From Escherichia coli (GTDB lineage: Bacteria > Pseudomonadota > Gammaproteobacteria > Enterobacterales > Enterobacteriaceae), in the NCBI RefSeq assembly GCF_003334255.1, contig NZ_QOWU01000147.1: a DNA stretch of 1,812 nucleotides; one strand, 5' to 3'. The translations under genes were made by a program, and so were the position numbers. Under the pieces are notes generated by a model. It was not told the DNA's origin. It worked only from the letters and a program-made list of their open reading frames with translations, and ran no database searches. The number at the start of each line of letters is the position of its first letter. Position 1 is the stretch's first letter. Shown here piece after piece: positions 1-1,812 of the stretch.

Positions 1-1812
1 GAAGCACAAACGCGAGAATCCGCCCACGGTGGTATCGGAAGCCATGGCAGAACTTCGCGCCCTGCCCTCGTTTCTTGGCAACGTGCTCATTCGTGATCTG
101 GCGCGTTTAAACCGCAAACAACAAAGCGCCCGCAATGAAGGCGTGAAAAACAACAACACTCACGTGGCCGATAACTTCGTTCGCCGTGGACTGCGCACAC
201 GCCTGAAACGCATCGAACAGGTGAATGAATGCTTCGCCACGACGGCATTCAAAGCCACCGCAGCGCGTCATCGCCTTGATGAATTACTCATGCTGCCACA
301 ACTCAACCGTGATCAAATTCAGCGCCTTGCCACACTAACGGCGGCGGCATTTTCCACCGAACTGGAACGCATATGTGATGAAGTTACTGAGCGGACAGGA
401 AAAGGCGACGATAACCTGTTTACCTGGTTGCTGACTTACCAGCAGCTGGCGCGCATGGCAATAAAACTGGGCGTGAACCCACCATACTGGCCGTCACTCG
501 AGATCAGACGTGACCGCCGCACGGCACCAGACCCTGAACTGGTACCGGGCGCGGTAATGCGTATCACCTGCGCCACCTGGTGGAACAACCAGCTGCGCCA
601 CCTCGCTGATCTCTGGCGGGAGGAATTACTGCGTGCCGCCGGAAGAGTATCGCGCAAGGCATCCCCCTACATCAGCCATGAGTCACTCCAGGAATTCCGG
701 GAGAAACGCCAGCGCACCCGTGATTTTCTCAAAAGCTGGGACATTGAAAACGAAGACGGTGAACGCCTGAGCCTGGAGGACGTGTACTGGTCAGGGCTGG
801 GGAATCCGCGCAACCGCCGCAACGAGATGATGGCCTGCGTCAGAGGGATGGAACAGGTCGCCGAATCGCGTGGTGACTCCGCGTTCTTCGTGACAGTGAC
901 CTGCCCTTCCCGCTTTCACAGCGTAAACGAGGACGGCAGCCTGAACCCGAAATACAACGGTGCCACCGTGCGCGATGCCAGTGATTATCTGGTTTACGAC
1001 GTCTTTGCAGCTGCAAGAAAAAAACTCAACAAAGAAGGCCTGAGCTGGTACGGGGTGCGCACCGTTGAGCCACACCATGACGGCACACCGCACTGGCACA
1101 TGCTGGTATTCACCGCCCCGGACAATGAAGAACGCATCATTGAAATCATGCGTGACGCAGCAATCAAATCAGATCGCGCAGAACTGGGGAATGATATTTC
1201 TCCGCGCTTCAAGTGCGAAAAAATCGACCCGGCAAAAGGCACACCGGCAAGCTACATCGCAACCTATATTGGCAAGAACCTAGACGCCAGCACCTTTCAC
1301 GACAATGACCCGAAAACCGGCAAACCTTACGCCGATAAAGAATCGGGAAAAACCATGGCGGAAACCGTGGAAAACGCCATTGCCTGGGCGAGTCTCCACC
1401 GCATCCGGCAGTTCCAGTTCTTCGGTATCCCGCCCCGCCAGGTATGGCGTGAACTCCGCCGCCTTGCCGGACAAATGGAGCGTAACCCCGCATCACCGAA
1501 GCGCCTGGACCATGACGACATTGACACCATTCTGGCCGCCGCTGACGTGGGGTGTTTTGCCACCTACATCAACCGTCAGGGCGGCGTGCTCATTCCACGC
1601 AACCTGTACCTGATCCGCACCGCATACGAAACCGCAGATGAGGCCAACGACTACGGCGAATTCCCGCAGCGCATCTACGGAATTTGTGCCCCGTCGCTCG
1701 GCGAGCGCTACACCATCTGCACCCATCCGGACGAGTGGAAACTGGTCAGAAAAGAAGCGAAAGCCGACAACAGCACGGACGAGGATTTTGACGTTGGGGG
1801 CGGCTTCGCCGC
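1..1812 (+). CDS. A: Internal fragment (5' and 3' partial) of a P2/186-type phage replication initiation protein gpA, a rolling-circle HUH nicking endonuclease
   Basis: Seen in sequence: the frame with codons at 2-4, 5-7 ... 1808-1810 has no stop codon across the window, while every other frame is interrupted (longest alternative ORF about 100 codons). Codons are dominated by enterobacterial preferred ones (ctg, cgc, ccg, gaa, aaa, acc, ggc). The translation contains FFVTVTCPSRFH (884-919), EPHHDGTPHWHMLVF (1067-1111, HUH metal-binding motif H-W-H followed by hydrophobics) and SYIATYIGKN (1250-1279, tyrosine codons at 1253-1255 and 1265-1267, Y-x-x-x-Y spacing). Established knowledge: this three-motif arrangement defines superfamily I rolling-circle initiators (phiX174 gpA, P2 gpA); I recognise the HHDGTPHWH block as gpA-like from memory, not from a database search. 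The first in-frame ATG in the window is at 44-46 but the frame is already open from the window edge. Confidence 0.85.

Follow-up and report, generated by a model that had tools for sequence, protein, structure and literature searches.

The 1,812-nt stretch of E. coli DNA analysed here (the window) lies entirely within one gene. Six-frame translation showed that frame 2 of the + strand contains no stop over all 603 codons of the window, and short ORFs only were seen in the remaining five frames. As no random sequence would remain open across 603 codons, the gene is real and not a chance frame. Its product matched the Pfam family Phage_GPA (PF05840) over model positions 1-320 of 321 (E=1.6e-108) and PHROG 91, 'nicking at origin of replication' (E=1.6e-225), and the gene is the replication gene A of the P2 family. 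The full-length Pfam match, the HUH motif, the Y-x-x-x-Y tyrosine pair and a nick core at the aligned in-gene position are common to this protein and gpA of phage P2, yet the two share 33% amino acid identity and differ in length (837 aa here vs. 761 aa in P2). The HUH region was the top conserved stretch vs. P2 gpA, with 93% amino acid and 86% nucleotide identity in a comparison of 14-codon windows. By analogy with the P2 A protein, on which this is established, the tyrosines of the SYIATYIGKN motif would be catalytic. The end of the window, positions 1741-1812, is plain coding sequence toward the 3′ part of the gene; a separate feature was found on neither strand there, the other frames give short overlapping ORFs only, and scans of the window region detected no Rfam families and no tRNAs. 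Coordinates of the features are collected in Table 1.

The best match to the window was found in E. coli STEC2018-607 (locus L001, whose coordinates are used below), which is 99.9% identical, with one mismatch. In this genome the gene is annotated as 'replication endonuclease', comprises 837 codons (L001 19747-22260) and contains the window at L001 20001-21812; codon 86 is the first one in the window, and 448 nt of the gene are left at the other end. Past the window end, 149 sense codons and a stop follow; the gene length of 2514 nt is common to close relatives. The first-pass annotation of this DNA, made from its letters, had estimated that the window ends within gene A with 100-plus codons left and had stated that nothing of a downstream locus falls inside it. 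Both statements proved correct, the former by the 149 codons of the 99.9% relative.

About 30 kb around gene A in L001 form a P2-like prophage. An integrase, a repressor and early genes are followed by gene A, a 3-kb interval, and the portal and large terminase genes on the opposite strand; beyond the terminase lie genes for the GPO scaffold, a P2-family capsid, gpM, head completion, lysis and the tail. The P2 gene order, in which the portal and large terminase genes diverge from those of the scaffold (O), capsid (N), small terminase (M) and L, with the tail genes after these, was found in the RefSeq annotation of the 99.9% match and of 12 further relatives, so the P2-like prophage context that had been assumed for the window was seen, with P2-type early and morphogenesis genes, around all 13 inspected E. 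coli loci. The nearest classified relatives belong to Xuanwuvirus (P88-like), not to Peduovirus, with ~73% nucleotide identity across 41% of the window. Altogether, 275 complete E. coli genomes matched the window, most of it was covered in 62, and in 27 the identity was at least 92%.

Some further features of the prophage were observed. The annotation marks a frameshift in the large terminase gene (L001 26315-28047) and gives the tail-fibre genes (L001 39076-40080) as fragments, and in view of this the STEC2018-607 copy may be defective. Upstream of gene A, a module of ~830 bp (L001 18215-19265) carries a 73-AA ORF elsewhere annotated as 'derepression protein'; the module is a tandem duplicate in L001 and L003, and single in L002 and L004. 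The integrase WP_016237838.1 (L001 11302-12294, L002 1404-2396) adjoins dmsA in two genomes and nadA in another, which reflects either two attachment sites or a chromosome rearranged at the prophage.

Table 1. Features of the window and of the downstream interval; positions are those of the window unless a locus is named.
Feature	Position	Strand	Description
gpA gene, internal part	1..1812	+	codons 86-688 of 837; frame 2, open at both window ends
HUH metal-binding motif region of the nuclease domain	1067..1111	+	EPHHDGTPHWHMLVF, contains PHWHMLVF
Active-site tyrosine pair (by alignment)	1250..1279	+	SYIATYIGKN, Y-x-x-x-Y; aligned to P2 gpA GYIAKYISKN
gpA residues 665-688	1741..1812	+	linker past the conserved core; translation KLVRKEAKADNSTDEDFDVGGGFA
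Inverted repeat	1800..1812	+	GCGGC-TTC-GCCGC; left edge of the predicted origin, directly 5′ of the nick core
Predicted origin, overall	1796-1812, on to L001 21813-21845
Predicted nick	L001 21818/21819		ACCTTG^GACTCG; 6 nt past the window end, aligned to the P2 nick
A-to-portal interval	L001 22261-25265		3,005 bp; six genes in the best match
Gene 1 after A			134-aa protein; PHROG 14984
Gene 2 after A			69-aa protein
Gene 3 after A	L001 22877-23215		112-aa winged-helix protein; Pfam MarR_2; PHROG 142 'Ren-like exclusion protein', E=1.4e-28
Gene 4 after A			short 105-aa SSB
Slot 1	~L001 23563-24228		delimited by pairwise blastn
TM gene, slot 1	L001 23615-24151	- (leftward)	178-aa protein, three predicted TM helices
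Conserved core	L001 24228-24524		~300 bp, delimited by pairwise blastn; kept in all close relatives
Slot 2	L001 24524-25191		delimited by pairwise blastn
167-aa protein gene, slot 2		rightward	545-bp gap after the TM gene; followed by the portal gene
TumE (DUF6516)/HVO_A0114 pair	L005 12328-13076; L006 12328-13076; L013 4313-5061		replaces the TM gene in slot 1
S1-CAM-02-A cassette	L012 6295-8802	-	458-aa, 114-aa and 263-aa proteins

Predicted origin and conservation boundary within gene A

In P2, the nick position given by the GenBank annotation (NC_001895) is 29892, and the protein alignment places it at window coordinate ~1817. At this position, equal in the gene to that of the P2 ori, we predict an origin with a nick site inside gene A. 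The nick core reads CCTTGGACTCGTGGCAATAACTGT here vs. CCTCGGAGTCCTGTCAATAACTGT in P2, and the predicted nick lies in the context ...GCGGCTTCGCCGCACCTTG^GACTCGTGGCAATAACTGT. The P2 DNA at the nick is AGCGGCATCGCCGCGCCTCG^GAGTCCTGTCAATAACTGTGG and the same stretch in this lineage is GGCGGCTTCGCCGCACCTTGGACTCGTGGCAATAACTGTCC; around the nick 32 of 41 nt are identical. At the same time, the two proteins share only about half of their residues there. With 76% nucleotide vs. 50% amino acid identity to P2, the nick stretch exceeded the nucleotide identity predicted from its amino acid identity by more than any other of the 431 14-codon windows compared, an indication that the DNA itself is under selection. 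The nick core was present in all related loci (14/14) and in at least 120 IMG/VR viral contigs. Gene A would thus encode a rolling-circle initiator of the HUH type, with the origin that it nicks forming part of the gene's coding sequence.

An inverted repeat adjoins the nick core at the very end of the window. In other lineages an inverted repeat is kept there with different stems (GCGCC/GGCGC, GGCGAC/GTCGCC and GGCGC/GCGCC), which cost amino acid changes. In the alignment, 73% of the cells were paired and 7 cells were changed on both sides, a count matched by 4 of 500 shuffles. Control positions slid by -3 and +3 columns were still ~60% paired, since the sequence is GC-rich, and the fold of the hairpin was no more stable than that of shuffled sequence (z = -1.2). 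Because of the modest pair counts and this z value, we regard the putative hairpin beside the nick as suggestive.

Conservation of gene A does not continue evenly to its stop codon. Similarity to relatives of 84% identity stops at L001 21856-21859, ~40 nt past the predicted nick, and from there ~135 codons of the gene are left (L001 21856-22260). When identities to the reference were measured on each side of the nick core, residues 1-697 of gpA were 94% identical in L005, 97% in L013 and 85% in L007, vs. 61%, 62% and 38%, respectively, for the last 140 residues. A similar asymmetry was seen in a set of 127 distinct loci with the nick core: of the pairs that share 95% identity or more over the 400 nt upstream, 11% are less than 70% identical downstream, and the reverse (alike downstream, diverged upstream) never occurred. 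A faster drift of the C-terminal domain accounts for part of this asymmetry. Putative recombination at or near the origin is suggested by the sharpness of the boundary and by the outlier pairs. That the nick site itself might be the left recombination boundary of a swappable module is a tentative proposal, to which we give rather less than even odds. Gene A had been described in the first-pass annotation as the conserved anchor of a variable locus; this holds up to the internal origin and fails for the last 140 codons, which diverge together with the downstream module.

Gene content and variability of the A-to-portal interval

As listed in Table 1, the interval of the best match comprises four genes co-directional with A, the first of which overlaps the stop codon of A, followed by the TM gene and the gene of the 167-aa protein. 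This 3′ content is that of genomes whose gene A is 92-99.9% identical and which themselves differ in cargo. The gene of the 112-aa winged-helix protein is placed after the replication gene, as lambda ren is after O and P. The GC content falls from ~55% in gene A to 41-42% over the TM gene. Alignment and modelling indicate that the 178-aa product of this gene has a beta-rich C-terminal domain with two invariant cysteines; the AF2 model is of low confidence (pLDDT 62, pTM 0.37). The 178-aa protein has no Pfam domain, and its homologues are limited to E. coli, Shigella, Salmonella and E. marmotae. Homologues of the 167-aa protein fall into two clusters only, both from E. coli. Across the interval, counts of predicted promoters and terminators were at chance level.

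In P2 itself, the order in NC_001895 is A, orf91, tin, old, cos (cosR), so that tin and old lie downstream of A, as the first-pass annotation had stated. On the phage map the TM gene takes the place of tin and old at the right end, and like these it is oriented leftward. Searches with tblastn (E<=1) detected homologues of tin, old and orf91 in none of 13 related loci, and P2 Old (586 aa) and Tin (253 aa) show no sequence similarity to anything encoded in these.

Comparison of the 27 genomes in which the identity of gene A reaches 92% or more revealed at least six arrangements of the interval. They were counted from spans and coverages, with annotation checked on representatives, and since some of the 27 are clonal the counts are of genomes and not of independent events. 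The TM gene is present together with the 167-aa gene in 6 genomes and without it in 14, to which one uninspected shorter variant is added. DUF4760 replaces the TM gene beside the 167-aa gene in 2 genomes, a three-gene HATPase_c/DUF4325 cassette accompanies the TM gene in 1, and a TumE/HVO_A0114 toxin-antitoxin-type pair, with or without SSB, was found in 3. Relatives of 84% identity carry yet other content, in one case two small ORFs and an ogr gene. The locus 3′ of A is thus variable, as had been proposed from the window. In the three-gene cassette of E. coli S1-CAM-02-A the 458-aa protein carries the GHKL-type ATPase motif ELLDNAERH, and the cassette gave no PADLOC or NCBIfam match.

Pairwise blastn of complete genomes showed that the swaps occur at fixed boundaries, with flanks 97-99% identical. 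They delimit two slots, one on either side of a core of ~300 bp; in the closest genomes slot 1 holds the TM gene and slot 2 is either empty or holds the 167-aa gene. Most close relatives have the four genes that directly follow A. The advice to look for cargo immediately 3′ of gene A was right in that swapping slots exist in this interval, but these four are conserved early genes and not cargo.

Because it is conserved between the slots and 32 nt of it match a P88 record at its right end, the core is a candidate cos. The matching stretch (L001 24233-24264) has repeated TGCACAA-like motifs and is 87.5% identical to the P88 end. A search with the P2 cos 19-mer, allowing up to 3 mismatches, gave a hit in P2 only and none in any of the related loci. 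The 88 bp beside the portal stop codon (L001 25178-25265) are shared by more than 1,100 complete E. coli genomes at 94-95% identity, and a perfect hairpin within this segment, GGGGCATAAATTTTTTATGCCCC, resembles a bidirectional terminator.

Defence-system profiles were searched with PADLOC (PADLOC-DB version of 2023). None of the six interval proteins of the best match gave a significant match, nor did ten further cargo proteins from variant arrangements (16 proteins in total from seven arrangements). The best PADLOC matches were weak winged-helix similarities with E=3e-4 or weaker. NCBIfam gave no significant match for the TM protein, and Pfam recognised only SSB and MarR_2 among the cargo. 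The downstream locus in this lineage is without a recognised defence system. Extension from gene A to the portal, with a defence screen and a comparison of related prophages, had been the check proposed in the first-pass annotation, and its outcome is a variable interval without a significant PADLOC match.

The gpA-gpQ hotspot and the possible role of its cargo

The first-pass annotation had also cited a described hotspot between gene A and the portal/cos end of P2-like prophages. Rousset et al. (2022, Cell Host Microbe, PMC9122126) did define such a region, the gpA-gpQ hotspot; they counted 1,650 arrangements among 18,150 loci of E. coli and validated several anti-phage systems from it. A 2026 preprint confirmed the gpA-gpQ locus as the main P2 defence locus. 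In that definition the bounding genes lie within ten genes of each other; in all loci inspected here, the 'replication endonuclease' gene and a gpQ-type portal gene enclose 2-8 annotated genes. The present arrangement is contained, by protein accession, in Table S5A of PMC9122126. In Table S5B of the same paper, system #4 is the TM protein (470 loci, '3 TM', no Pfam), system #3 is DUF4760 (1,102 loci), system #54 is the 167-aa protein (77 loci) and system #19 is HATPase_c|DUF4325 (155 loci). None of these four sequences is among the tested systems of its Table S2, and a full-text literature search with the cargo protein accessions returned no citing paper. We also considered whether the S1-CAM-02-A cassette is the validated three-gene anti-P1 system of Rousset et al.; the link was not found, and the cassette matches system #19. 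Both the hotspot and the cargo of this gene A are thus already known, with the cargo catalogued as uncharacterised.

The locus resembles the gpA-gpQ hotspot in its bounding genes, in the varied content of near-identical prophages and in its catalogued cargo units. Unlike the hotspot at large, the arrangements of this lineage lack any recognised defence system; in addition, conserved early genes make up about half of the interval, and the variable part is divided into two slots that flank the conserved core. We consider it highly probable (about 90%) that the end of the window is plain coding sequence of a P2-family gene A, with a predicted origin inside the gene itself and the published cargo hotspot downstream.

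Two other accounts of the locus would make the hotspot model inapplicable or empty. Gene A could stem from a non-P2 element, such as a satellite, a plasmid or an isolated remnant; it is true that no deposited phage genome exceeds ~76% nucleotide identity to the window and that gpA is only 33% identical to that of P2. Yet in all 13 inspected E. coli loci the gene stands between P2-type early genes and those for the portal, terminase, GPO scaffold and P2-family capsid, and all 295 matching places (295/295) are chromosomal, with none on plasmids, which leaves such an origin very improbable. The A-to-portal interval could alternatively be a conserved core throughout, with the differences reflecting assembly or annotation noise. 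The sharing of the first four genes by most close relatives is in line with this, as are six genomes that have the whole 3,005-bp interval in common at 98.6% identity or more, but complete genomes show clean whole-gene replacement at the fixed boundaries, with near-identical flanks and different gene content. The arrangement spans in the 27 genomes and the blastn boundaries refute an invariable interval, and we give that account even less credence than a non-P2 element. Neither an interval of conserved P2 core genes alone nor a context other than P2-like, the two outcomes named beforehand as contrary to the hotspot reading, was what we found.

A further proposal concerns function and goes beyond the reading of the window as part of a P2-family gene A upstream of a known hotspot. 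The 178-aa TM protein of slot 1, perhaps with the 167-aa protein, could provide an unrecognised anti-phage or superinfection-exclusion function, and as an undescribed exclusion or Abi factor it may block the entry of incoming phage DNA or trigger abortive infection at the membrane. Its gene stands leftward at the tin/old position, has the low GC content typical of acquired genes and is elsewhere replaced as a whole by DUF4760 or the toxin-antitoxin pair; the protein combines three helices with a small, probably periplasmic, beta-rich domain with two invariant cysteines, as modelled. Its occurrence in 470 hotspot loci, outside the tested systems, and the narrow range of its homologues, which lack a Pfam domain, are consistent with such a role. 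Base rates in the 2026 preprint add to this, as 6 of 8 randomly picked uncharacterised P4 hotspot loci were phage-protective and 15-32% of the uncharacterised P2 hotspot proteins were predicted to be antiviral. On the other hand, PADLOC, NCBIfam and Pfam gave no significant match for the TM protein, its AF2 model is of low confidence, no promoter above chance was recognisable for its gene, and many hotspot genes have other functions, e.g., partitioning or toxins (PMC9122126). The gene is also beyond the window end, and the window's own genome may carry other cargo. Taking our estimate from the base rates of the preprint, we regard the TM protein as a reasonable candidate for an exclusion function, though this is less likely than not.

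As a discovery, the window has small value, being a pointer to a hotspot for which over 18,000 E. coli loci have been surveyed, with nothing of it inside the window. If the TM protein is anti-phage, the pointer leads to something new. What our analysis adds is a sharper map: the four genes after A can be skipped, and swaps are confined to two small slots before the portal. As an anchor for locus extraction, gene A is usable up to the origin within it, not to its stop codon. If the nick is a recombination boundary, the unit of exchange would begin inside the replication gene, and not after it.
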